Below are positions 1,933-31,917 of a stretch of 32,000 bases of DNA, piece after piece (within the stretch, counting starts at the first letter, position 1; each line of letters starts with the position of its first letter). This DNA comes from an uncultured Erysipelotrichaceae bacterium (lineage in GTDB: Bacteria > Bacillota_I > Bacilli_A > Erysipelotrichales > Erysipelotrichaceae): assembly GCA_942493105.1 (NCBI GenBank), contig OW818668.1, positions 180,001 to 212,000 on the forward strand, written 5' to 3'. A model generated the notes under the pieces. It was given only the letters and a program-made list of their open reading frames with translations. It had not been told where the DNA came from and searched no databases. Both the position numbers and the translations under genes were made by a program.

Positions 1933-2588
1933 CAACCTAACCGATACCCATATCCATAAATCGTATGAATATTGAGCGCCTTAAGTTTCTTACGTAGTCT
2001 GCGTAACGTATCGTCAACCACCCGATCAGATCCAAAGTAATTGGTTTCCCACACTCTTTCTAGGATTTGTTCGCGTGAAAATGCGATGGTCTTGTTGCGG
2101 ACAAACATCATGAGTAGATCGAATTCTTTGGTGGTCAATTCAATCTCTGAATCGTGTTCATAGACTTTGCGTTGAACCAAATCGATCTCATAACCATCGA
2201 CTTCGATACGATCGTCGTCTTTATACACACGGCGCATGATGTTGTTGACTCTTAATACAAGTTCTTTGGGTGAAAAAGGCTTGGTGATATAATCATCTGA
2301 TCCTTTTTCTAGACCGATGATACGATCAAACTCTTTATCACGGGCAGACATAAAGATAACAGGAACCGAAGGATTGACTTTACGTATCTCTTCGATCAAA
2401 TCAAAACCGCTTCGATTGTCCAGCATAATGTCCAAAATCCATAAAAGAATATCCGGATTATGCGTCTGCATGCTCGCACTATCATAAGTCAAATGAGATC
2501 TGACTTCATAGCCTTCTTTCTCAAGATAACGTTTTACCAATTCATTGAGATCTTTTTCATCTTCGACGATCGAAATGATGCGTTTCAT
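1932..2588 (-). CDS. OmpR/PhoB-family response regulator
   Basis: Receiver domain with acidic pocket (VEDE, phospho-acceptor in WILDIMLD). C-terminal winged-helix trans_reg_C domain (LTTKEFDLL...IHTIYGYGYRL). Its start codon overlaps the glmM stop by 1 nt (TAATG). Confidence 0.92.
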   Translation of the reverse strand: MKRIISIVEDEKDLNELVKRYLEKEGYEVRSHLTYDSASMQTHNPDILLWILDIMLDNRSGFDLIEEIRKVNPSVPVIFMSARDKEFDRIIGLEKGSDDYITKPFSPKELVLRVNNIMRRVYKDDDRIEVDGYEIDLVQRKVYEHDSEIELTTKEFDLLMMFVRNKTIAFSREQILERVWETNYFGSDRVVDDTLRRLRKKLKALNIHTIYGYGYRLG

Positions 2589-3913
2589 TATAGGTGCTCT
2601 CTTTCAATGACAGCTACGATTTGGGATACTAAGTCATCACACAGATCTTGAGTCGAGGCCTCAGCCATGACCCGAACCAAAGGTTCAGTTCCAGATGGGC
2701 GAACCAAGATGCGTCCTTCTGTGCCTAATGTTTCTTGAAGCAAGGCGATGTGTTCACACAATACAGGATTCTTTAAGGCTTCATGCTTGTTTGCGACTTG
2801 CACATTGATCAAGGTCTGAGGATAAATGATGAGGTTTTTGGATAGTTCCGCAAGTCCCTTCTTTTCTTCAACCATGATCGATAATAAGCTAAGGGCAGTT
2901 AGTAGACCATCTCCGGTACTTAAGTACTGTTTAAAGATGATATGACCGGACTGTTCACCGCCTAAGCTCAGATCTTTCTGAAGCATTCTGTCATAAACAT
3001 ATTTATCTCCGACTTGAGTCTGTTCGGTTTTGATGCCTGCATCTTGCAGAGCTTTATAGAGACCAAGATTGGCCATGACGGTAGTAACGACCGTATCTTG
3101 ATTGAGTAACTTATGCTTCATCATATTCAAAGCACAAATGTAGATGGTCTTATCTCCATCGATCAAGTTACCTTGTTCATCAACCGCGATTAAGCGATCC
3201 GCATCTCCATCAAACGCAAGACCTACATGACACTTATTTTCAATGACGAATTTTTGCAGATCTTCAGGATGCGTCGATCCGCAATGATTGTTGATGTTGA
3301 TCCCATTAGGGTTATCATGCATGCTCACTACATTCGCATGCATCGATTCCAATACTCTTTTAGCACTGACACAGGCAGATCCATTGGCCGCATCGATCGC
3401 AATCTTCAACCCTCTTAGATCAATAGGATAGATTGAAGTAATATAATGGATATAATGGTCTAATCCTTGTGGGTATGCTTCTATCTTACCGATTTCAGTA
3501 TCATTGGCTAAAATCAAATGCGTTTCTTTATTGAGCACTTTTTCAATCAAAGCTTCGATTCGATCATCTATCTTTATGCCTTGATGATTAAAAATCTTGA
3601 TTCCATTATCATAATAAGGATTATGACTGGCAGAGATCATCACACCAGCGATAAAATCTTCTTTAGAGCACAAATAAGCAATGGTCGGTGTAGGAACTAC
3701 CCCAGCATCATAAGCATGCGCTGAAGACGCGGCTATGCCTGCACAGACTGCATACTTCAACATCCCTGAACTTAATCTGGTATCCATGCCTACAACGATC
3801 TTAGACTTTGGATAGATCGCACCTAGTGCTTGTCCAATTTGAAAAGCCATATCAACGGTCAACCCAACATTGGCTTTTCCTCTAACTCCATCTGTTCCGA
3901 AATATTGTCCCAT
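2588..3913 (-). CDS. glmM: phosphoglucosamine mutase
   Basis: N-terminus MGQYFGTDGVRGKAN, active-site phosphoserine loop SASHNPYYDNGIK, metal loop FDGDADR, GEQSGH sugar loop. AAGGAG lies 5 nt upstream of the ATG. Classic position after cdaA-cdaR. Confidence 0.95.
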   Translation of the reverse strand: MGQYFGTDGVRGKANVGLTVDMAFQIGQALGAIYPKSKIVVGMDTRLSSGMLKYAVCAGIAASSAHAYDAGVVPTPTIAYLCSKEDFIAGVMISASHNPYYDNGIKIFNHQGIKIDDRIEALIEKVLNKETHLILANDTEIGKIEAYPQGLDHYIHYITSIYPIDLRGLKIAIDAANGSACVSAKRVLESMHANVVSMHDNPNGININNHCGSTHPEDLQKFVIENKCHVGLAFDGDADRLIAVDEQGNLIDGDKTIYICALNMMKHKLLNQDTVVTTVMANLGLYKALQDAGIKTEQTQVGDKYVYDRMLQKDLSLGGEQSGHIIFKQYLSTGDGLLTALSLLSIMVEEKKGLAELSKNLIIYPQTLINVQVANKHEALKNPVLCEHIALLQETLGTEGRILVRPSGTEPLVRVMAEASTQDLCDDLVSQIVAVIEREHL

Positions 3914-3921
3914 GATGCTCC

Positions 3922-5289
3922 TTAATTCGTCACTTTGATTTTAATGGTCGATTTGACTAAGGTGTACTTAACCAATGGATTAGGTCCTTGGACATACAGT
4001 TGGACTTCGTTTTCACCTAAGACAACATTCTTCATATCAAAGTAAACATATAAATCTTCATTGGTGATCGATTCAATATTAGTCTGTGTTCCAAACACAT
4101 TAACGGACGTATAAACATCCTGAAGATCCACTAAGGTAAAACGATAACCCTTCACATTATTTGAATATTCAATGATGACATTAGGGATGGTTTTGGTGGC
4201 TCCAGGTGCCAACTTGATCTGCATATTGACAACCTTAACGGAAGTTTTAGTGATGCCTGAAGGTAATGGAATATCTGCTACCAAATTAACATCCGCCGTC
4301 AACGCTGTCGCATCTATAGGAACCAATACAGTATCAATCGCACCTAAAATAGAATCTTGACCATAAATCGTAATGGTCTGATGATCATAAGTCACAGTGT
4401 CAATGGCTAAACCACCTGGTATTTCACCAATCGGCGAGATCGCAACAGGAACACTCTTATTGGGCGATGAGACCCCTACTGTAACAGAAACCTTGGTCGG
4501 CAAAATATCGACAATCATGCGATCTCCGTTTTGATCATAGGCCACAACTGTTCCTTCTTTTGTAAAATCATTGGTGACTCCAGATACATCGATCAGGACT
4601 TTAACCATACCGATCTTATCCAAAGTATCTTGAGATGCACGGATGATGACTTCTTGGTCAGATAAGACAGGCACTCCTAAAACATATTCCTGATTCATTT
4701 GATCTTTGTTGACGAAATCATAAGACAAGGCAAAACGTTCTGAGATCTTCTTTTTTATGGTAATGACTGCTGTTGTTTGCGATAAAGCAACATCCAACCG
4801 AGTCGAAAAATCTTTAGGCGATAATCTGACTTCGTGCGTACCTTCAAGAAGCCCTGACAGATCCGCAACGACAGAATAAGCTTTTTGTGTATTCATTAGT
4901 GAAATATCTGACAGATCTCCAACCACATAAGCTGACACACTCTTCGGTAAACCTGAAATCTCATAGATTTCTGTATTCGCAATGACACTTACGGGGATCA
5001 GCGGAATCTTATATCCGGATTGAACCGGATTATTGAAGACAGATTCTCCAAGGTTGAAGTTGATGGCCGCATACAGGATAACTGCTAAAACCAATGAAAC
5101 AAGTTTGCTTGTCTTTTGGTTATACATCAATTTATCAAACCAACTGCTGATAAATCTTAAGATTCTTAAGATGAGCTGTTCAATATTGGTATAGGTCGTA
5201 ACAACTTTCTTACTTTGGTTGGCGATTTGCTTAGCCAGCTCTAGCTTTTCTTGGCCACTGCTTGGCTGTTGCTTTTTGGGCTTGCTCAT
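3922..5289 (-). CDS. cdaR: YbbR-domain protein, CdaA regulator CdaR
   Basis: N-terminal TM anchor (LVSLVLAVILYAAINF) followed by about four YbbR-like beta-rich repeats. Start moved to the ATG at 5289 (MSKPKKQQ), preceded by AAGGAGGTG. There is a 1-nt gap from the cdaA stop. Confidence 0.85.
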   Translation of the reverse strand: MSKPKKQQPSSGQEKLELAKQIANQSKKVVTTYTNIEQLILRILRFISSWFDKLMYNQKTSKLVSLVLAVILYAAINFNLGESVFNNPVQSGYKIPLIPVSVIANTEIYEISGLPKSVSAYVVGDLSDISLMNTQKAYSVVADLSGLLEGTHEVRLSPKDFSTRLDVALSQTTAVITIKKKISERFALSYDFVNKDQMNQEYVLGVPVLSDQEVIIRASQDTLDKIGMVKVLIDVSGVTNDFTKEGTVVAYDQNGDRMIVDILPTKVSVTVGVSSPNKSVPVAISPIGEIPGGLAIDTVTYDHQTITIYGQDSILGAIDTVLVPIDATALTADVNLVADIPLPSGITKTSVKVVNMQIKLAPGATKTIPNVIIEYSNNVKGYRFTLVDLQDVYTSVNVFGTQTNIESITNEDLYVYFDMKNVVLGENEVQLYVQGPNPLVKYTLVKSTIKIKVTN

Positions 5290-5290
5290 G

Positions 5291-6304
5291 CTATTCACCT
5301 CCTTGTTTATCATCATTATCTTCGAGAAGGACATCTTTAGAAACACTATATTCTAAATCTAGTTTTTCCATCAGTTCTTCTTTAGTCGCTTCAATAGTCT
5401 GTTCTAGAGGTTGTTGAGTTGACTTTGTTGATTTAGGTTTCCTACCAAAACGAAGTTTCTTTTCAGAATCAATCGGTAAGATGGTCAATGTCGTCTTGGG
5501 TTTGATGGACTTGGTATGATCGATCTCAGGCATATCTTGTATGATTGCTTTTTCTAAGAAAGGTCTTAATTCTGCATGTGTGATTGGAACAAGTTCGCCT
5601 TTTTCAGCAATCGATATCTGTCCGCTTTTTTCACTGATGACGATCGTAATGGAATCTGTGATCTCACTGATCCCAATAGCAGCTCTGTGACGAGCTCCAA
5701 TTTTGGATGGTAAATCAATCGTCGTCGGTGGAAAATAAGCAGATGCACAGGCAATGCGGTCCCCTTGGATGATGATGGCACCATCATGTAAAGGTGTGGT
5801 TTCAACAAAAATTGATTGAATCAGTTCTGAACTGACCAAAGAATTAAGTTGAGTCCCTGTTTCTATATAATTATTTAAAGAATGACCTTGTTCAAGTGTA
5901 ATCAAGGCACCTATTTTATTTTTAGATAAGTTATCTGTAGCATCTACTAAAGCTGAAACAAGTTTCTGACGTTCATTGCCTGATAGTGTTGATAGTCTAG
6001 AGAATACCGTGGTTTTTCCAATACGTTCAAGTAAAGATCTGATTTCAGGTTGAAAGATGATGATGATGGCCAGAAAGCCCCAAGTCACCAAGACGCCTGC
6101 CAACCAACTGACAGCCGTAAATCCAAAGAAATTAGCGACCGCTTGTAGCAATAAGATGAAAACAATGCCTTTGAAGATTTGCGATGTTCTGGCATTGTTT
6201 CTAACTATTTTTACCCCGTAATATAATAATATCCAAAGGATAAGGATATCAAAAATCATTCTGAACAGCTGGACAATGGTCTGTATGGTGTTATAACTGA
6301 ACAT
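5291..6304 (-). CDS. cdaA: diadenylate cyclase CdaA (membrane-anchored DAC domain)
   Basis: Three N-terminal TM helices. DAC motifs PLHDGAIII and GARHRAAIGISE...VISEKSG. Start moved to the ATG at 6304 (MFSYNTIQ), preceded by AAGGAGGG 6 nt upstream. The ORF-track 5' extension to 6436 crosses the promoter. Confidence 0.93.
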   Translation of the reverse strand: MFSYNTIQTIVQLFRMIFDILILWILLYYGVKIVRNNARTSQIFKGIVFILLLQAVANFFGFTAVSWLAGVLVTWGFLAIIIIFQPEIRSLLERIGKTTVFSRLSTLSGNERQKLVSALVDATDNLSKNKIGALITLEQGHSLNNYIETGTQLNSLVSSELIQSIFVETTPLHDGAIIIQGDRIACASAYFPPTTIDLPSKIGARHRAAIGISEITDSITIVISEKSGQISIAEKGELVPITHAELRPFLEKAIIQDMPEIDHTKSIKPKTTLTILPIDSEKKLRFGRKPKSTKSTQQPLEQTIEATKEELMEKLDLEYSVSKDVLLEDNDDKQGGE

Positions 6305-6329
6305 TACAAAACCCTCCTTAGTCTCAAAT

Positions 6330-6358
6330 ATTATAACATAACCGCAATTATGTGATAA
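6330..6358 (-). promoter_or_regulatory. sigma-A type promoter of the cdaA operon
   Basis: Minus strand reads TTATCA, then 17 nt, then TGtTATAAT (extended -10). It lies about 25 nt upstream of the cdaA RBS. Confidence 0.6.
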
Positions 6359-6412
6359 AGGCAACCTTGTGAAATTGTGTGAAGGAAAGCATAAGATTTG
6401 TGTGATACAATA

Positions 6413-7570
6413 ATGGATATGATTAGCACCATTCAACTAGAAGACAAAACAATCACTTTAATCGGTACAGCTCATGTTTCACATCAGTCTGCCCAAGAGG
6501 TTTTAGATGACTTAAGCAATGGATCTTATGATGCAATTGCCATAGAACTTGATGAAGAAAGATTCAAAGGCCTCAATCAAGAAAAAACTTGGAAAGATAC
6601 CGACATCATCAAGATCATCAAACAAAAACAAACAGGATTATTGATGACTCAGCTCATTTTAGCCTCTTATCAGAAACGTTTGGCGAAAGCCAATCAGATC
6701 AATGTCGGACAAGAAATGATCACTGCGATTCAATATGCCCAAGACCATGAGATCCGCTTACTTAAAATCGATCGAAGTGTCACCATTACCTTTCAAAGGA
6801 TCTGGAGATCCTTTAACTTTTTTGACAAAATAAAGCTCTTGACGGAATTGATCTTGTCGGTCTTTTCAACTGAAAAATTCAGTGAGGCTGATTTAGAAAA
6901 GCTGAAAGAACAAGATATGCTTCAAGCTGCTTTGGCTGAAGTGAGTCAGAAGTTTCCTAAGATTGCAGAAACCTTGATCTTTGAACGAGATCGGATCATG
7001 GCCTATAAACTAAGACATGCGTCGGGTTCAAACATCGTTGCGATCGTTGGCGCAGCCCATGTGTCAGGCATCATCAGTCATCTCACTAATGCAGATTTAA
7101 ACATTGATTCCTTAATGAGTGTGCCTCCTGCAGGTAAATTTAACAAGATCATTGCTTATATCTTTCCTTTATCGATCATTGCCTTACTTGTCATCACCAT
7201 GGCCTTAAGTCCTGATTTAGCCCTTAATACCATCTTGAAGTTCATTGTCTTCAATGGCTCATTAGCGGCCCTTGGGACCTTCATTGCCTTTGGTCATCCT
7301 TTAAGTATCTTGACAGCCTTTATCGCTGCACCAATCGGTATCTTATCACCTGTATTGGCAACAGGTTGGTTTGCGGGACTAACCGAAGCAACGATGCGTA
7401 AACCCAAAGTATCGGATTTTATGAATCTTCAGGAAGATGCCATGCATTTAAAAGGCTGGTGGAAAAACAGAGTCTTACGGATCCTGTTGGTGGTGATGAT
7501 GGCCAATATCTTTGCGAGTTTTGGATCGATCGTCACATCGATTGATTTGTTTAAAAATATATTCAATTAA
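6413..7570 (+). CDS. TraB/PrgY-family protein with C-terminal membrane domain
   Basis: N-terminal TLIGTAHVS signature and a second GAAHVSG motif typical of the TraB family. C-terminal third is strongly hydrophobic (4-5 TM). The start is uncertain (ATG 6413 or 6419; the ORF-track TTG at 6398 has no SD). Confidence 0.8.
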   Translation: MDMISTIQLEDKTITLIGTAHVSHQSAQEVLDDLSNGSYDAIAIELDEERFKGLNQEKTWKDTDIIKIIKQKQTGLLMTQLILASYQKRLAKANQINVGQEMITAIQYAQDHEIRLLKIDRSVTITFQRIWRSFNFFDKIKLLTELILSVFSTEKFSEADLEKLKEQDMLQAALAEVSQKFPKIAETLIFERDRIMAYKLRHASGSNIVAIVGAAHVSGIISHLTNADLNIDSLMSVPPAGKFNKIIAYIFPLSIIALLVITMALSPDLALNTILKFIVFNGSLAALGTFIAFGHPLSILTAFIAAPIGILSPVLATGWFAGLTEATMRKPKVSDFMNLQEDAMHLKGWWKNRVLRILLVVMMANIFASFGSIVTSIDLFKNIFN

Positions 7571-13924: not shown

Positions 13925-14734
13925 TCATCTTTTAATCAATGCATAGGGATCTTTATCAACTTGTTTAGGATCTTTTTGAATCGTCCCTAATGGAAATGCA
14001 TAGAAGATAAATTCCTCTTGACCATCAAGTTCAAAGGCCTCATCACATAAAGCCTGATCTATATAGCCTACAGCACATCCACCAAGTTGAATTGACGTCG
14101 CTGCAAGATATAGATTTTCTGTTATATGTCCAGCATCGATCAGAGCAACACGATGCGCATAAATCCCATAACGCCATTCACAGCGATAACAAACAACACT
14201 GTAGTAAAAGGTTACATTAGCTTTATTGGCCCAATCTTGACCGCCTAATGATTTCCCATTGAATGTTTTCAGGTCATCTCTGACTTTCAATAATTCAAGT
14301 TGATGGGTCATAGGCAAGTAATGATAGGTACCATCTTTTAGATCATCCACATTTTGAACAGTAAGGTAACACTCAAATTGGTGACGAGCACCACCGCAAG
14401 GGACTGTCCTGATGGTCGCATACTGATTGCCTCGTATTTCTTTGATGCCTTGTGTACACCACAAAAGATAAGACAAAGCCAATAGAGATATCTTTTCTTC
14501 TGTGTATATGCGATCAGATTTACGCTTATTGATGATTTTCAAAAAATCATGCTCGATCTTCAAGTCACTAAAGTTGATTGGAAGATCAGTGGCGACTTGT
14601 CTCATAGGTGCTTTAACCAAAGGCGGTTGAGGCAATTTCAATTCCTGATCAGATTGAACTTCAGGATCCTCAATGGGCATCTTCATAAAATCTCTTCCAT
14701 TTTTGATCAGATGATCAATGTGTTGTTTATCCAT
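13925..14734 (-). CDS. SagB-type / nitroreductase-family FMN oxidoreductase
   Basis: RKSDRIY...LSYLLWCTQG...RTVPCGGARH.FE.YL and a C-terminal LGGCAVG pattern, typical of the SagB/ThcOx nitroreductase subfamily. The start is probably the ATG at 14734 (AAGGAA SD). The ORF-track ATG at 14758 lies 2 nt after a TGtTATAAT promoter element. Confidence 0.75.
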   Translation of the reverse strand: MDKQHIDHLIKNGRDFMKMPIEDPEVQSDQELKLPQPPLVKAPMRQVATDLPINFSDLKIEHDFLKIINKRKSDRIYTEEKISLLALSYLLWCTQGIKEIRGNQYATIRTVPCGGARHQFECYLTVQNVDDLKDGTYHYLPMTHQLELLKVRDDLKTFNGKSLGGQDWANKANVTFYYSVVCYRCEWRYGIYAHRVALIDAGHITENLYLAATSIQLGGCAVGYIDQALCDEAFELDGQEEFIFYAFPLGTIQKDPKQVDKDPYALIKR

Positions 14735-14823
14735 TATCTGTTCCTTTTTGTGTTTCATTTATTATAACACTATGGAAAAAATGAGTACTTGTGAATCAGC
14801 ACAAGCTTGTCTTCAGATATACT

Positions 14824-14919: not shown

Positions 14920-15837
14920 TTATTCTCTAATATACGTTGTGGCAAATTTATAGACAGGCGCAAATTCACTATAGATCTTCCCAGTCGATGTCTTAATATA
15001 AGATCTCACCCAAACAAAGTACTTTTTCCCTAAAGTTAAGCCAGTGAGTGATATGCGTGTTGTCTTAATGTCTTTGACCATTTTTGCAAACAGAAAGACG
15101 GAAGAATCACCAATAAAAACTTCGTATCCTGTAACTTTAGTTTGTGCATTCCATACGATATCAATACGTTTATCGTAAGCCGTAAGTGTAATATTAGGAT
15201 TCATTATGGGTTTCGCAATGATCACCAAAACCTGTGAAAACTCACCCATGAAGGTTTCTGTAGCCCCTTGTGTGATGGCTCTGGCACTGAAGTAGTAAGT
15301 TTTTGATTCAATAATGGGGATCGTACATGACGGAACTTCCGTTGTACAAACCAGTCTCTTTTCATAATCTCCAACATTTGAGACATAAACTTGATATCCT
15401 GTTGCGCCAACGATTGATGTCCAGGCAAGATAAACATCATCTGATATAAAACCTAAAGTGGATAATTCAGGGATCCCTAAATTACCGGTCTTGGTACTAA
15501 CGGTATTTGAGAAATTCTTATAGACCTTAACCCCATTTGTTTCTGAATAAGGCTTGACCTTATAGTAAGCAACAGAAAGTGGCATTAAACTGGTATCGAC
15601 ATATTTTAGTTCAGTCGTTGAATTTAAGAGTGTATATTCTTTAGATTGACTATGAGCAGCATACACTTCATATCCGGTCACATCAGGTACAGATTCCCAC
15701 ACAATGACTGCATATCCAGAACCTACCTCATCGATATCTATCAAAACTCCATTGGTTTGTTTTGGTGAACATGCGGCATTAGACAATAAAAACAGTATGA
15801 CGGTAACCCGAATCAAACAATTTTTTATGGTATTCAT
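14920..15837 (-). CDS. secreted/lipoprotein-like protein with three fibronectin type III-like domains
   Basis: Signal sequence ending LLSNAAC (Cys-containing, non-canonical lipobox). Three repeats of the pattern W......TGY(E/Q)V(Y/F) (VIVWESVPDVTGYEVY, LAWTSIVGATGYQVY, IVWNAQTKVTGYEVF). GAGGAG RBS. Confidence 0.7.
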   Translation of the reverse strand: MNTIKNCLIRVTVILFLLSNAACSPKQTNGVLIDIDEVGSGYAVIVWESVPDVTGYEVYAAHSQSKEYTLLNSTTELKYVDTSLMPLSVAYYKVKPYSETNGVKVYKNFSNTVSTKTGNLGIPELSTLGFISDDVYLAWTSIVGATGYQVYVSNVGDYEKRLVCTTEVPSCTIPIIESKTYYFSARAITQGATETFMGEFSQVLVIIAKPIMNPNITLTAYDKRIDIVWNAQTKVTGYEVFIGDSSVFLFAKMVKDIKTTRISLTGLTLGKKYFVWVRSYIKTSTGKIYSEFAPVYKFATTYIRE

Positions 15838-24858: not shown

Positions 24859-26208
24859 TTAAGCTTGTTTAGCAATACGTTTGAAGTTGATGAAAGCCAT
24901 GACGCCAGTGATGGCAGTCAAGATGCCTAAACCAATCCATCTGAAGTTCATGAGTTGAACGAAAGCCCAGCTCAATGGTGAAGCTCCATCAGCAATACTT
25001 GAAATCAGGTCAGCACCTACAGGCAAGGTGAAGTTAGCAGCAACAGCAGCTTCGGTCAATAACGGAGCAATACCAGTTGCGATCCACAAGCCAGTAACAA
25101 CGATGAAGATACCAACAACTAAAGTTCTGAATAAATCGCCTTTAGTAATAGGAACAACCAAGACAAACAAGAAAGGCAATACCGCTAAGTCAGCAAACGG
25201 CAAGAACTGATTGCCTGGCAAAATAGCAGCGATCAAGACGGATAACGGAACAAGGATCAAAGAAACAGCCAAGGTTGTCGGATGACCGATACCTACAGCA
25301 GCATCCAAACCGATATAGATCTTGGTGTTGGATTTGAAATGTTTTTCAACGAATTCAGAAGCAGCATCAGAAATAGGAATCAAACCTTCCATGAGTAATC
25401 CAGCCATCTTAGGAATAAGAACCAAAGCAGCACCCATGGTGATACCCAAGGATAAGAAGCCTTTCAAATCGTAACCAGCTAAGACACCGATAATGGCACC
25501 TAAGACTGTTCCGACCAAGATCGGTTCGCCAAAGATTCCAAATTTCTTCTGAACAGCAACAGCATCCATATTGATTTTGTTGATGCCTGGGATATAATCC
25601 AAGATTTTATTGATGACTAAAGCCACAGGAACAAACGCTACTGATAATCCGTGAGGAATAGAAACGCCTGGTAAACCACAGTATTCTTCAACGCCTTTAG
25701 CAGTCCAGTCAGCCAAGATCAATGTCATGGCAGCTTGAATTGCAGCTGTTGCTAAACCAAAGACCAAGTCATTGGTAGCAAAATAAACCAAAGAACCTGT
25801 GAATGCATAATGCCAGAAGTTCCAAACGTCAATATTGACTGTTTGAGTCGTTTTGGTCAAGATCATAACAAAGTTGACAGCTAATGCAACAGGAATAACC
25901 AAAGCCCCTACATTGGTCGCAAACGCGATGGCTGCAGCTGCAGGCCACCCAACATCAATAACAGTTAAGCTTAAGCCATAATTCGTAACCATTTGTTGAA
26001 CGGCTGGGCCTAAGTTTCCACCCAACATCCCAATAACCAAATTCAAACCAATGAAACCAACGCCAACCGTTAGACCGGCTCTAATGGCCTTGCCTGGTTT
26101 TGCGCCCATGATCAAACCGATAAGGGTAATAACGATCGGCATCATGACTGATGAACCTAAGCCTACGACAAAGTTTATGCCATCCATAATGACTTTAAAA
26201 ATGTCCAC
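24859..26208 (-). CDS. PTS EIIC, L-ascorbate (UlaA/SgaT) family
   Basis: A 449-aa polytopic membrane protein whose size and glycine-rich hydrophobic pattern fit SgaT/UlaA permeases. It sits immediately after the cognate IIA and IIB genes. Confidence 0.85.
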   Translation of the reverse strand: MDIFKVIMDGINFVVGLGSSVMMPIVITLIGLIMGAKPGKAIRAGLTVGVGFIGLNLVIGMLGGNLGPAVQQMVTNYGLSLTVIDVGWPAAAAIAFATNVGALVIPVALAVNFVMILTKTTQTVNIDVWNFWHYAFTGSLVYFATNDLVFGLATAAIQAAMTLILADWTAKGVEEYCGLPGVSIPHGLSVAFVPVALVINKILDYIPGINKINMDAVAVQKKFGIFGEPILVGTVLGAIIGVLAGYDLKGFLSLGITMGAALVLIPKMAGLLMEGLIPISDAASEFVEKHFKSNTKIYIGLDAAVGIGHPTTLAVSLILVPLSVLIAAILPGNQFLPFADLAVLPFLFVLVVPITKGDLFRTLVVGIFIVVTGLWIATGIAPLLTEAAVAANFTLPVGADLISSIADGASPLSWAFVQLMNFRWIGLGILTAITGVMAFINFKRIAKQA

Positions 26209-26237
26209 AATTTTCTCCTTTTTTGTGTTTGTGTTGT

Positions 26238-26531
26238 CTACTTAAGACCTAATGACTCGAGTATATCTTGTAAAACTGGTTCAGTACCCCGACCTATAAG
26301 AAAAGCCACACCCATAATTACTTTGACCGGCATCGGTTTGCTGTTATGCGCCGTTGTGACGATCAAATCATATTTTGAAGCCTTAGACTCCATCTCTGCA
26401 ACTGTACAGGTTGATACTTCTACCAAATCACCAAAGCCTCTCTCTTTAAAGATATTTTCTAGCTTTTTAGCGACGGCAACGGATGTAGCAACGCCTGTAC
26501 CACAAGCAACCAGTACTCTTTTCTTAATCAT
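26238..26531 (-). CDS. PTS EIIB, ascorbate/lactose-type (UlaB-like)
   Basis: MIKKRVLVACGTGVATS carries the active-site Cys in a P-loop-like context. 97 aa. Start moved to the ATG at 26531 behind AAAGGAGGGTG. Confidence 0.88.
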   Translation of the reverse strand: MIKKRVLVACGTGVATSVAVAKKLENIFKERGFGDLVEVSTCTVAEMESKASKYDLIVTTAHNSKPMPVKVIMGVAFLIGRGTEPVLQDILESLGLK

Positions 26532-26550
26532 GCACCCTCCTTTCTTTTCA

Positions 26551-27012
26551 TCAAGCAATTTGAGCACTCATCAGCGCATAGAGCGCCTCAGGAGTGGCTG
26601 CTTCCTTAATTTGGGTCAGCAAGCTTTCGTTTTGGATCATATCCATCAAACTTTGCAAGACTGACATATGCGAATGCGATTCTTTTAAGGCCAACATAAA
26701 CATGACTTCAACGTCGATCAGTTCATCATGATTGCCCATCATACGAAACTGAACCGGATTTTTTAAAGTTGCGACAGCCAAGACCGACGTGTTGACGTAG
26801 CAAGGATCCGCATGTGGAATCGCTACCCCTCGGCCAAATCCTGGCAAACCTGTTGAGAATTCTGCTTCTCGATCAAGAATCGCCTGAATGAAAGTATCCT
26901 TTACATAGCCTTCTGCTTTTAACTTTTCAGCTAAGATCACTAAGGCTTCATCCGCGTTTTGAGCTTCAATATTCAATAAGATAACTTTTGAATTGAATAG
27001 AGATGCGCTCAT
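26551..27012 (-). CDS. PTS EIIA, mannitol/fructose/Ntr-type (UlaC-like)
   Basis: 153 aa with GVAIPHADP phospho-His motif. ATGA overlap with the upstream mini-gene. Confidence 0.88.
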   Translation of the reverse strand: MSASLFNSKVILLNIEAQNADEALVILAEKLKAEGYVKDTFIQAILDREAEFSTGLPGFGRGVAIPHADPCYVNTSVLAVATLKNPVQFRMMGNHDELIDVEVMFMLALKESHSHMSVLQSLMDMIQNESLLTQIKEAATPEALYALMSAQIA

Positions 27013-27260: not shown

Positions 27261-29213
27261 TTAACTGCTTAATAAAACTTCACTGATGGCTTGTGCCACT
27301 TCTTCTTTATCCTTCATTGAACAGATTCGATTCCATAGGGCTAAGTCATCACTGTGATCGGCCAAATGACTGAAGAATGGGATCGTATCAGATGCATCTT
27401 CTTTGGTTGAGACTACGTTGAGGATCATTTTGACCTCAACATCTTTTTCCCAAAGGACGGGATGTGTCAGGATGACCACTTGGATACAACTTCTTAAGAC
27501 ATAAGCGAAGTCACCATGAGGAATCGCAATCATCGATGAGATGACAGTAGGTCCCAAAGCTTCTCTCTCAAGCATGCTTTCCAGATAACCTTCAGTAACG
27601 AGTTTACGTTTACTTAAAGTCTGATTTAAGAAATATAAGACATCTTCTTTGGTTTTCAGATCGACATTTAAGTGGATATCGTCTTTGGTGATCGCAGCTT
27701 TAGTAGGTGCAAATGTTTTCTTGCCTTCTACGATTTCTCGGATGGCATTCATATCGTACTGTGGTAGTAAAGGATTGATGATGATCGTTTTGATCTTCGA
27801 TTGAATGGCCACCGTTGAGATGATCAGATCGATCTTTGATTCATCGTAACTATCAACGTCCATCGTAGAGGTCACATCGACGATCTCAAGGTTATTGAAA
27901 GCGCGTTTTAGTTTCGCCACAATGAGTTGAGATGTTCCTAATCCGCTGGCACACATAACTAAGGTCCGGATCGGTTTGATATTGCGTTCTCTGGCTGCTG
28001 CAAAGTGTAAGACCAGATAAGCAATTTCATTGGGTGGCATTTCAATGTGGAACATAGATTTAAACAAAGATACATGGTTGGCTATGGCTTGATAGATCGT
28101 AGGATAGGAGAATTTAATCTCTTCAAACATTGGATTCTCTAGAGATAGCCCATAAAGCAGGCGGTTAATGGTGGGTTTAAGATGTAGGATCAAACTATTG
28201 AACAGTTGCGTATCTGTTTCTAGAAACAGATTGAGTTCCATTTGAACATTCTGGATGAATTTTAAGATGAGATCTTCTAGGACAGGTGTATCTGATGAGA
28301 GCTTGAAGTTAAAGACATTAAGACCTTCTTTAATACGTTTGGCTCCCATAAAATGAAGCAAGATATAATAGGTTTCTGTTTCAGATAAAACAACATTGAA
28401 GACAGAGTTGATGCGTTGAGCGGTTTCTAAGGCAATGGCGTATTCTTCTTGATGGTCTAGGGCTTGAATCAATTCGTCGGTCAAACGAATGTTGTTGCCT
28501 TGTTTTGTACGTCTTATCGCAATTGCGATGTGGATGATCAAGTTGATCCTGGCTTCCATAGAGAAGGAATAGCCTAACTTGATTTCTGATTCCGCTACGA
28601 TCTCTTCGACTTTCTTATAATCCAGTTGAAGTGACTCTTCAAAACGATTGACGAAGGAATGAGAACGGCGATCTGTGTTGTCTTGGTTGTAGTAAACAAG
28701 ATTCTTGTTTTCTTCAAAGGGGACAAGCTTAGCCATTGCTTTACGCTTATTGCTTTCTTCCCCAACAATCACAGTGCCTTCACCTTTTAAATATTCAATG
28801 ACTAAGTTGAAGTCTGCTAACATCGCATTGAGTTCACTGATGTCTTTGGTGATCGTAGAACGGCTGACATAATAGTCTAAACCCAGTTCTTTGATCATAA
28901 GCGGTCGGTTTTCCGCAAACAATTTCGATAAGATCGAACGTTGTCTTTCTTGAGGGGTTAAATAACTGGTATCTCTGCGAGTTTTAAAGGTAGATAGCAA
29001 TTGTTGTTTATCACTGGGATCCCCTTCAATGGTGATACCTTGACCCGGTTTTTTGATCATGACCAAATGATGATCTTGAAGGATGGGTTCTATCAGATCT
29101 AATTCATTGCGAACTGTCTTGGGTGAACTGTTGACTGCTTTGGCGATCAAGTCAACACTGACCAGATTCTTTTCACTCAGGATGAATTTAACGATATCTT
29201 CTTTTCTGTTCAT
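27261..29213 (-). CDS. PRD-domain transcriptional regulator of the MtlR/LicR/ManR class (HTH-HTH-PRD-PRD-EIIB-like-EIIA-like)
   Basis: N-terminal winged-HTH pair, two PRD-like helical regions with conserved His (LILHL, LVLHFAAA), an EIIB(Gat)-like LVMCASGLGTSQ and an EIIA-like AIPHGDF. Start moved to the ATG at 29213 behind GAGGAG. Confidence 0.88.
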   Translation of the reverse strand: MNRKEDIVKFILSEKNLVSVDLIAKAVNSSPKTVRNELDLIEPILQDHHLVMIKKPGQGITIEGDPSDKQQLLSTFKTRRDTSYLTPQERQRSILSKLFAENRPLMIKELGLDYYVSRSTITKDISELNAMLADFNLVIEYLKGEGTVIVGEESNKRKAMAKLVPFEENKNLVYYNQDNTDRRSHSFVNRFEESLQLDYKKVEEIVAESEIKLGYSFSMEARINLIIHIAIAIRRTKQGNNIRLTDELIQALDHQEEYAIALETAQRINSVFNVVLSETETYYILLHFMGAKRIKEGLNVFNFKLSSDTPVLEDLILKFIQNVQMELNLFLETDTQLFNSLILHLKPTINRLLYGLSLENPMFEEIKFSYPTIYQAIANHVSLFKSMFHIEMPPNEIAYLVLHFAAARERNIKPIRTLVMCASGLGTSQLIVAKLKRAFNNLEIVDVTSTMDVDSYDESKIDLIISTVAIQSKIKTIIINPLLPQYDMNAIREIVEGKKTFAPTKAAITKDDIHLNVDLKTKEDVLYFLNQTLSKRKLVTEGYLESMLEREALGPTVISSMIAIPHGDFAYVLRSCIQVVILTHPVLWEKDVEVKMILNVVSTKEDASDTIPFFSHLADHSDDLALWNRICSMKDKEEVAQAISEVLLSS

Positions 29214-29331
29214 AGGCTCCTCTTGTTTGTTAAACTCAAGCAATCTTTGCCAATGCACACGATGCGTTATTTCGTGCAATTCTACCTCACAATCATTCTA
29301 TAATGAACATTTGTGATTAGATGGTGTGACA

Positions 29332-29363: not shown

Positions 29364-29480
29364 TATCGAACTTTGTTTCGATAATTCACTTCAATATAAT
29401 AATCGATTTCATCAATTTATGACACAGAAATACCTTTTCAACTTAGGTGCATAAAATTCACAATTGTTCAATCACCCTAT

Positions 29481-29508
29481 TGATTTGATTTTTTATCGTG
29501 CTATGATG
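29481..29508 (+). promoter_or_regulatory. sigma-A promoter with extended -10 driving the riboswitch leader
   Basis: TTGATT, then 16 nt ending in TGc, then TATGAT. It ends about 20 nt upstream of the aptamer. Confidence 0.6.
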
Positions 29509-29527
29509 AGTCTAGCAATGAACCATG

Positions 29528-29605
29528 AATGAAAAGGCAAACTATCCGAAAGGATAGGACGCAAAGCTAGAGGGCCTTCCTTAAGGATGGCAGCCAGTTT
29601 CCAAG
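29528..29605 (+). promoter_or_regulatory. c-di-GMP-I (GEMM-I) riboswitch aptamer
   Basis: AAAGGCAAAC-UAUCC-GAAA-GGAUA-GGACGCAAAGC-UAGAGGGCCUUCCUUAAGGAUGGCAGCC. It has the conserved GGCAAAC, a P2 hairpin with GAAA tetraloop, the GGACGCAAAGC junction, and a P3 hairpin with a CCUUAAGG/GAUGG receptor-like internal motif. Compare the Vc2 core GGCAAACCAUUCGAAAGAGUGGGACGCAAAGCC. Confidence 0.8.
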
Positions 29606-29692
29606 TTATCGTTCTTTTTATTTAGGTAAAAAATGTTTCTGAATCATAATGTATTGTGTATGTTTTGCGAAGCGCGATGAAAGGAGCACATC

Positions 29693-31230: not shown

Positions 31231-31917
31231 ATGAAGAAGAAGAGACATATCTTACGCAATATTTTCTTGGTTATTGTATTGCTTATCGTTATAGTCGTTG
31301 GCATGTTTTTTATCCCAAAAACAGTCAATGTTGCTTACACAGATAATGATCTTCAATCCTATTTGGACAAAGGTGGCATTACCTTAGATGAAAACAGTGC
31401 CAGTATTGAAGACATCTTTTTTGGGAATTATGTTTCTAAAGGAAGACGCTCTGTTGAGGGGGTCATCACCAGTGCCGAAGCCACAGCCATTCTTAATAAA
31501 GTTGCGGATGGAAACAGTATCTTAACCAACATTCGTGTTAAATTTGTCGGGGACAACAAATACATTGCTTCAGCTCAAATCGGCAGTGATTTCAGTATGG
31601 TCTATGATAGATTTCCTGCTGCGAAAGATTATTCTGGTTGGATCGATACGACCTTAAAAGGACGCTCGATCTATGGAGAAGGCACTTTGATTCAGGGCTC
31701 AAATAAGCCATTTGAAGCAACTTTCACCAACATCTCTGTTGGTTATATCCCTTTACCTGTTGATCAAGCCAATAACTACGGAACTGCTTTAGGAACAGAA
31801 ATGAATCGTATCTTTCAAACATTACCAGGGTTCAGTATGCAAAGCTTTAAGATTGATAAAGAAGGCCTTCATTTTAAAGGGACCATTCCAACAGAAATTG
31901 AAGCGCTCGGTTCTTAA
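31231..31917 (+). CDS. N-terminally membrane-anchored protein of unknown function
   Basis: MKKKRHILRNIFLVIVLLIVIVVGMFFI signal-anchor followed by a soluble domain of about 195 aa with no motif I recognise. It has its own upstream region after a terminator. Confidence 0.6.
   Translation: MKKKRHILRNIFLVIVLLIVIVVGMFFIPKTVNVAYTDNDLQSYLDKGGITLDENSASIEDIFFGNYVSKGRRSVEGVITSAEATAILNKVADGNSILTNIRVKFVGDNKYIASAQIGSDFSMVYDRFPAAKDYSGWIDTTLKGRSIYGEGTLIQGSNKPFEATFTNISVGYIPLPVDQANNYGTALGTEMNRIFQTLPGFSMQSFKIDKEGLHFKGTIPTEIEALGS

Follow-up and report, generated by a model that had tools for sequence, protein, structure and literature searches.

The leader of a gene for a secreted protein with fibronectin type III (Fn3)-like domains in an uncultured Erysipelotrichaceae bacterium harbors a canonical class I riboswitch aptamer for cyclic di-GMP (c-di-GMP), and the two flanks of this aptamer form a conserved helix that directly abuts a run of U residues (U-run). 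The gene lies in a stretch of 32,000 nucleotides (nt) of contig OW818668.1 (assembly GCA_942493105.1, positions 180,001 to 212,000, forward strand), which was analyzed at its full length and is here called the window; all coordinates are positions in it, and the features are collected in Table 1. Our overall reading, to which we assign a probability of roughly 0.6, is that c-di-GMP clamps an extension of the closing helix of the aptamer (P1), that the clamped extension terminates transcription at the U-run, and that the element is therefore a transcriptional OFF switch repressing the Fn3 gene. An earlier annotation made from the letters and open reading frames (ORFs) only (hereafter the sequence-only reading) had proposed a c-di-GMP riboswitch in the leader of this gene and a secreted repeat protein as its product, a proposal that is supported by the Rfam score, the canonical G/A/C ligand-contact residues, the conserved pairing of aptamer and gene, and the protein model. 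The same annotation had described the element as unannotatable by ORF, which is true and also trivial, as a standard Rfam scan detects it.

Aptamer identity and ligand class

A cmscan of the whole window, on both strands and with 4227 Rfam families, revealed RF01051 (c-di-GMP-I, also known as GEMM-I) as the sole match above the gathering threshold. This was the model with which the sequence-only reading had suggested checking its claim, and the score of 70.1 bits exceeds the gathering threshold of 35. Its sequence marks the element as a canonical class I aptamer that is predicted to bind c-di-GMP. The equivalents of G20, A47, and C92 of the Vibrio aptamer Vc2, which we take to be the ligand-contacting residues seen in the Vc2 crystal structures, are G29536 (model position 11), A29563, and C29601 in the window, and all three were invariant among the orthologous leaders.

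The fold of the element also follows the description of the GEMM family, in which a first hairpin of 2 base pairs (bp), a 3-nt internal loop, and 6 bp carries a GNRA cap and is joined to a second hairpin by an AAA linker (PMC1950547). In the window, the first hairpin (P2) ends in a GAAA loop, and the linker occupies 29563-65. Five of the six pairs of the P2 stem were changed on both sides among orthologues, and the pairs of the compact second hairpin (P3; helices 5 and 6) were maintained, with unpaired A residues (29569 and 29571) near the P3 base. The tetraloop-receptor-like motif that the sequence-only reading had placed in this second hairpin is absent, since P3 is short and has no residues in the receptor columns (CUAAg / uAuG) of the Rfam alignment. 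The lack of a receptor does not disqualify the element from GEMM-I because half of the family also lack it: the 11-nt GNRA tetraloop receptor is optional and present in about 50% of the members, with GAAA loops usually being accompanied by it (PMC1950547).

Whether the aptamer could sense another ligand, such as cyclic GMP-AMP (c-GAMP) or whatever ligand the GGC and UAU variants recognize, was considered because Rfam clan competition placed four orthologous leaders (L001, L002, L006, and L049) in RF03167 (c-di-GMP-I-GGC) with 59-66 bits; nevertheless, such a ligand is very improbable. The RF03167 consensus GACGCGAAg has G at position 47, whereas the window (GACGCAAAG) and all orthologues have A, and RF03167 wins in those four leaders only as its model shares the short P3 and the annotated P1. 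Because of the A at position 47, the leaders labeled RF03167 are canonical G/A/C aptamers. The best score of the window itself was obtained with RF01051. The nucleotide at the G20-equivalent position decides between G and A specificity (PMC9481103), and here it is the invariant G29536, not the A of c-GAMP variants. Membership in the GGC variant was thus rejected, as the window and every orthologous leader read GACGCAAA(G/A) with A at position 47, and membership in the c-GAMP group (GEMM-Ib) was rejected owing to G29536 and the lack of A at position 20. Clan competition can therefore tag canonical aptamers as the orphan GGC variant, a caveat for variant-riboswitch surveys, which might gather false members in this way.

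Conservation of the aptamer-gene pairing and the leader

Homologues of the downstream protein numbered 168 at E <= 1e-3, and homologous loci were taken from genomes, metagenomes, and assemblies; the closest genome loci were Erysipelotrichaceae or Bacillota metagenome-assembled genomes, and several proteins of the window share clusters at 90% identity with proteins from such Erysipelotrichaceae genomes. The aptamer was located upstream of the homologue in L001, L002, L004, L006, L008-L010, L046-L050, and L052, in which the homologue was 46-66% identical, and it also preceded the homologue in L029, with 31% identity in the best-matching segment. In all, the aptamer lay ahead of a homologue in 15 loci of genomes and metagenomes besides the window, and including the window, about 11 distinct leader sequences carried the aptamer-gene pairing. 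The association was not universal, as no aptamer was found in the 2.5 kb upstream of the homologue in L053, and Rfam scans of the more distant homologue loci revealed none either.

The arrangement of the leader was also kept. The end of the aptamer is separated from the ATG by 88 nt, and a same-strand 5' leader with an upstream promoter was retained in the orthologous loci. The sigma-70-type promoter was also picked up by a promoter scan (9/12 matches, TG before the -10), and it recurred in L004, L008, and L046-L050 as TTGAAT/TTGACC/TTGATT-N16-TGTGnTATGAT. Its position predicts a transcription start near 29514, which would leave 6 nt ahead of the flanking helix. The sequence GAAAGGAG at the Shine-Dalgarno (SD) site was kept across orthologues in the leader alignment. 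The promoter, the leader string (29533-29595), the U-run (at 29615-29623), the CUUCCUU (29576-29582), the SD, and the ATG (29693) were all found where the sequence-only reading had located them.

Flanking helix and candidate terminator

The sequence-only reading had seen no terminator hairpin before the U-run. A candidate stem is nevertheless present, namely an extended P1 that brackets the aptamer and ends flush with the U-run; no hairpin is visible just before the U-run because the stem is formed by the two flanks of the aptamer. Sequence inspection and a terminator scan found no distinct terminator hairpin in the stretch from the aptamer to the U-run. The extension pairs 29520-29523 with 29611-29614 and 29525-29528 with 29606-29609, and it continues past a small internal loop into the P1 pairs U29530-A29603 and G29531-C29602, which adjoin the C92 equivalent. 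The extended P1 is thus about 10 bp long, AU-rich, and interrupted, and the aptamer (about 70 nt) constitutes the 'loop' of the stem. A second register, GAAUGA/UCGUUC, is possible in the window and was rejected, as the 3' changes of the orthologues fit it worse than the main register.

The helix and the U-run recurred among the orthologues. The leaders share GAAC(n)AUGAAUG just 5' of the aptamer core and CAAGUUAU(n)GUUC just 3' of it, and a U-run directly follows the stem in 10/10 orthologous leaders, with 6 to 8 U among the first 9 nt. When seven in-register leaders were aligned by MAFFT, with no fit to the flanking helix (A3), RNAalifold predicted this helix, with covariation at 29523:29611 (CG, UA, or UG) and at 29525:29609 (AU, UA, CG, or GU). 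The helix was not predicted on an 11-sequence MAFFT alignment (A2), in which four sequences with one extra nucleotide were out of register. A covariance model including the flanking helix was then searched against all loci, and its 16 hits were the basis of the pair counts. In this alignment, which leans towards the structure and consists of related sequences, so that the RNAalifold result on A3 is the more independent evidence, 6/9 pairs of the flanking helix were changed on both sides with 88.9% of the cells paired, and in the whole structure, including P2 and P3, 94.3% of the cells were paired and 15 pairs were changed on both sides. None of 500 shuffles reached the whole-structure pairing, and slid controls paired at 28-50%. 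Moreover, the flanking helix was part of the minimum free energy (MFE) structure of the nascent RNA in 9/10 orthologues.

As a side observation on the U-run, in about half of the orthologues it forms, with a short loop and a complementary A-run, an AU-only hairpin (e.g., UUUUUA-UUUAGG-UAAAAA), which was detected in the window (29615-29633), L046, L049, L008-L010, L001, and L002.

Table 1. Features of the riboswitch locus, all on the plus strand of the window
Feature	Position	Strand	Details
Sigma-70-type promoter	29480..29507	+	-35 TTGATT 29480-29485; 16-nt spacer ending TGC; extended -10 TGcTATGAT 29499-29507 (TATGAT 29502-29507)
c-di-GMP-I (GEMM-I) aptamer, Rfam RF01051	29526..29605	+	70.1 bits vs gathering 35; E 5.2e-12; full model 1-87
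G29536, equivalent of Vc2 G20	29536	+	Presumed contact with one ligand guanine; model position 11; invariant in all orthologues
First hairpin (P2)	29537..29562	+	G29537-C29562, C29538-G29561; 3-nt internal loop; 6-bp stem 29542-47/29552-57; GAAA loop 29548-51; from the Rfam alignment
A29563, equivalent of Vc2 A47	29563	+	Presumed intercalation between both ligand bases; window reads GACGCAAAG; invariant in orthologues
Second hairpin (P3), compact	29565..29599	+	29565-68/29596-99; 29572-76/29589-95 (AG bulge 29592-93); 29578-80/29585-87
C29601, equivalent of Vc2 C92	29601	+	Presumed Watson-Crick pair with second ligand guanine; from the model alignment; invariant in orthologues
Candidate terminator stem, 5' strand	29520..29531	+	P1 extension GAAC-c-AUGA 29520-29528; P1 UG 29530-29531
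Candidate terminator stem, 3' strand	29602..29614	+	P1 CA 29602-03; P1 extension UUAU-c-GUUC 29606-29614
U-run UUUUUAUUU	29615..29623	+	Directly abuts stem end 29614; proposed termination site
Shine-Dalgarno AAAGGAG	29680..29686	+	6 nt upstream of ATG 29693; from the sequence
Regulated gene, 463 aa	29693..31084	+	ORF, translation
Hairpin and U-run after stop codon	31098..31131	+	Fold -12 kcal/mol; z-score -2.7; putative terminator

Proposed mechanism and direction of control

In the mechanism that we propose, transcription from the promoter would start at about 29514, and without ligand the stem would be too weak to halt the polymerase, so that the gene would be transcribed. c-di-GMP would contact G29536, A29563, and C29601 and close P1, the closed P1 would stack on the extension and stabilize it, and RNA polymerase would stop at the U-run, so that a short transcript of about 105-110 nt would take the place of the mRNA; the Fn3 protein would hence be repressed at high c-di-GMP. 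Ligand binding and the stem would reinforce each other because P1 belongs to the ligand-bound fold. The energies are those of a weak stem: the aptamer hairpins alone yield -19.9 kcal/mol, and the addition of P1 and its extension yields -20.9 or -21.3 kcal/mol, a gain of only about -1 kcal/mol. Capped with a tetraloop, the stem alone amounts to -2.0 to -5.5 kcal/mol across orthologues, well under the values of usual intrinsic terminators. No antiterminator was found in 10 orthologues, as either strand of the stem, with the other blocked, had no recurring alternative partner. In addition, the putative start at about 29514 lies only 6 nt before the stem, so that no upstream RNA would be left to compete. 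In L029, the same P1 extension covers an SD (GGAAGG) and does not precede a U-run; by analogy, this would be the classic OFF layout and would support the OFF direction.

The clade may thus represent a minimal OFF switch without an antiterminator, in which a complete aptamer is the loop of a sub-threshold terminator and the c-di-GMP clamp lifts it above the threshold, a more specific proposal that we put forward tentatively, at somewhat less than even odds. The architecture also disagrees with the analogy to clostridial adhesins drawn in the sequence-only reading. Those adhesins are driven by class II ON switches, and the repression predicted here fits the class I OFF switches of Clostridioides difficile instead.

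Several points weigh against ligand-induced termination as just described. Where transcription starts, whether it ends at the U-run, and in which direction control runs are deductions, the choice between ON and OFF being read from the architecture alone. The stem base, GAAC/GUUC, is AU-rich, unlike that of typical terminators, and a simple terminator scan did not call the stem; the lean of the covariance-model alignment and the relatedness of its sequences, given above, belong here as well. Domain searches among the about 40 ORFs of the 32-kb window found no GGDEF, EAL, or HD-GYP domain. By nearest-neighbor folding, the flanking helix is already present in the ligand-free equilibrium ensemble with p of about 0.9 at length 29614, and the folding barriers are low (4-6 kcal/mol), so that termination could be partly constitutive. 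Finally, an alternative junction, AAAA-GGC/GCC-A-GUUU, can lengthen the stem without ligand, and the apo form could then terminate better than the bound one.

The ligand-free stability of the helix leads to the possibility that the P1 extension and the U-run are a largely constitutive attenuator and that c-di-GMP acts elsewhere, on translation (e.g., through pairing of P3 with the SD), on the stability of the mRNA or the short RNA, or on the fold of the read-through RNA, which we judge unlikely, though the likeliest of the alternatives. It gains from the read-through RNA of the window, in which 29526-36, the A-rich 5' strand that includes G29536, pairs with the U-run region (29614-24) at p 0.99 and would lock the aptamer shut; however, this read-through helix (29522-29536 with 29614-29627) was strong only in the window and L050. 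A preprint also reports that Vc2 governs how stable an upstream small RNA is (bioRxiv 10.1101/617340). A strong constitutive terminator is hard to square with a stem of -2 to -5.5 kcal/mol.

The translational form of this alternative had been raised by the sequence-only reading, and UUCCUU (29577-82) can indeed form six pairs with AAGGAG (29681-86). Comparative analysis provided no support for it: the P3 apex varies (UUCCGU, UUCAUA, CUCCGU) without matching changes in the SD, the 60-nt spacer from the U-run to the SD is poorly conserved, and no SD-pairing element recurs in the orthologues, the conserved parts being the P1 extension and the U-run and not an SD-sequestering partner. Furthermore, P3 stays stably folded in both states, which keeps its pyrimidine strand occupied. 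Another sequestration of the SD, 29634-40 paired with 29682-88 in the MFE structure of the window, was not conserved across orthologues and was rejected.

The alternative junction would give rise to the opposite direction of control. In such an ON switch, the apo junction would extend the helix to an efficient terminator of about 15 bp, and the ligand would pull G29536-C29538 and the P3 base back, leaving a weak 8-bp extension and hence read-through. The alternative junction with the extension is the MFE structure in most orthologues (-24.3 kcal/mol in the window vs -20.9 for the aptamer fold), and among the described GEMM terminator layouts the most frequent is ligand-ON. However, nearest-neighbor energies leave out tertiary and ligand energy, and the A3 alignment revealed that substitutions in the alternative junction break its pairs (AC, AG, CU) without compensation. 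Moreover, the ligand-bound fold retains, and should stabilize, the 8-bp extension beside the U-run, which is the most important part of the terminator, and the SD of L029 lies within the same P1-extension strand, an arrangement that reads as OFF. An ON switch is accordingly improbable in our view, more so than a constitutive attenuator.

One further fold was encountered in the leader. GGAUAG in the 3' strand of P2 (29552-29557) and GGAUGG in the 3' strand of P3 (29585-29590) are both able to pair with CUAUCC (29542-29547), and the resulting rod-like fold (CUAUCC/GGAUGG; MFE -26.9 kcal/mol, barrier 11.7 kcal/mol) was judged incidental, being missing in most orthologues.

The regulated Fn3 protein and its homologues

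The product of the regulated gene has a Sec-type signal peptide of about residues 1-29, with the boundary at MRKHHMKKIMLGSLGAILILSLLFQPVMA/M (VMA/M), followed by a long helix (37-73, coiled coil), a disordered Pro/Glu-rich linker (74-112), and three Fn3-like domains of about 119 aa each, which correspond to a 357-nt tandem repeat in the gene. The three beta-sandwiches were modeled by AlphaFold2 with a pLDDT (predicted local distance difference test score) near 90, the top Foldseek matches were fibronectin Fn3 tandems (E 1e-13), and Pfam fn3 was matched at E 1.9e-6. No LPXTG motif, SLH domain, or C-terminal anchor was found in the translation, and the protein is predicted to be extracellular or attached by its N-terminus. 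Because a hairpin and a U-run stand behind the stop codon, the gene is probably monocistronic. If c-di-GMP represses it, the Fn3 protein probably has its role when c-di-GMP is low, in the planktonic or dispersal state.

Homologues carry two or three Fn3 repeats, and many distant ones carry SLH or RsgI domains, with some fusing RsgI_N/RsgI_M or SLH to the same Fn3 module. In L001 (1867-4410), L002 (1799-4389), and L006 (1365-3889), the riboswitch, the flanking helix, and the U-run precede a two-gene unit encoding a 318-aa membrane protein with an RsgI_M domain (the central domain of anti-sigma RsgI) and then the Fn3 protein. The riboswitch connects the c-di-GMP regulon of Erysipelotrichaceae and related Bacillota with a conserved, uncharacterized family of secreted proteins that have two or three Fn3 domains, and, with some members co-transcribed with an RsgI-like protein, it provides a handle on the role of the family.

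Other features were observed near the homologues. In L046, L049, and L050 (probably also in L004), a small ORF and a nitroreductase gene lie downstream of the riboswitch-controlled Fn3 gene, and the neighborhood in the window is rearranged. L004 has a borderline match to c-di-GMP-II-GAG (RF03169; 2915-3000, plus strand; 40.4 bits vs 40) about 1.5 kb downstream of the Fn3 homologue, which was not followed by a same-strand ORF of at least 70 aa within the locus. In L047, a transfer-messenger RNA gene (RF00023, 144.7 bits; 3715-4059, plus strand) is located about 0.8 kb downstream of the Fn3 homologue.

Genomic neighborhood in the window

The gene downstream of the Fn3 gene (31231-31917, 228 aa) matched neither Pfam nor NCBIfam and did not resemble the RsgI_M protein of L001. 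A gene for a PRD/Mga-type regulator with EIIB and EIIA domains of the phosphotransferase system (PTS) (27261-29279, minus strand) is oriented divergently from the riboswitch promoter and is followed by a galactitol-type PTS (EIIA, EIIB, EIIC; 24859-27012, minus strand). A 305-aa Fn3-like ORF (14920-15837, minus strand) was considered as a close paralogue and rejected, with 24% identity over 131 aa and no riboswitch; it adjoins a nitroreductase gene (13925-14758, minus strand). The operon for cyclic di-AMP (c-di-AMP) synthesis that the sequence-only reading had recognized in the window was confirmed, comprising cdaA (DAC domain, 5291-6436, minus strand), cdaR (YbbR, 3922-5346), and glmM (2588-3913), and a two-component system (577-2588) adjoins this minus-strand cdaA-cdaR-glmM block (2588-6436).

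Comparison with known systems

The aptamer itself is routine, as any Rfam-based annotation labels it, and the expression platform appears to be uncommon. Like GEMM-I in general (RF01051, with Vibrio cholerae Vc2 as the prototype; PMC1950547), the element consists of two adjacent hairpins joined by AAA, has the GGCAAAC and GACGCAAAG cores, and lies 5' of a gene for an envelope or extracellular protein. Unlike typical GAAA-capped members, its second hairpin is short and lacks the 11-nt receptor, with unpaired A residues near the P3 base instead.

The class I c-di-GMP riboswitches of C. difficile act as OFF switches at the level of transcription, and the secreted protease PPEP-1 is under the control of one of them (PMC11477304). 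The window resembles Cd1 (flgB) and other class I OFF switches in being a class I aptamer of Bacillota with predicted ligand-induced premature termination. In Cd1, however, the terminator is a hairpin of its own further downstream, and the aptamer faces competition from an antiterminator (PMC9262584), whereas the window has neither and the flanks of the aptamer are the stem. The common GEMM layout, in which the 5' arm of the terminator overlaps the 3' side of the second hairpin, likewise places an intrinsic terminator with a U-run near the aptamer (78/322 instances; PMC1950547); there, aptamer and terminator are mutually exclusive and the ligand gives ON, whereas in the window the two are compatible and reinforcing, so that the ligand should give OFF.

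The HMP-PP (hydroxymethylpyrimidine pyrophosphate; thiS motif) riboswitch, described as a 'terminator-embedded aptamer' (PMC6478431), is similar in that aptamer and terminator share one stretch of RNA in a very compact form. In that class, the aptamer is made from the terminator stem and excludes it, whereas in the window a complete three-way-junction aptamer sits inside the stem and supports it. According to the same paper (PMC6478431), the conserved aptamer of every other class lies for the most part upstream of its terminator, and the layout in the window therefore looks uncommon. A literature search found no c-di-GMP-I riboswitch already described with P1 as the terminator, which is no proof that there is none. 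The direct translation attenuation of SAM-I (S-adenosylmethionine) riboswitches with the ribosome-binding site in the 3' side of P1 (PMC2258182) is likewise comparable, as the signal is appended to the P1 3' strand with no further platform, and L029 shows the same with its SD; in the window, a U-run acting on transcription takes the place of an SD acting on translation.

If the more specific proposal of a clamped sub-threshold terminator is true, the element would be the mirror image of the HMP-PP terminator-embedded aptamer and the transcriptional counterpart of riboswitches with the ribosome-binding site in P1. If confirmed, it would represent a very compact natural case of ligand-induced termination without alternative pairing, which could be useful for the study of terminator thresholds and for the design of synthetic switches.

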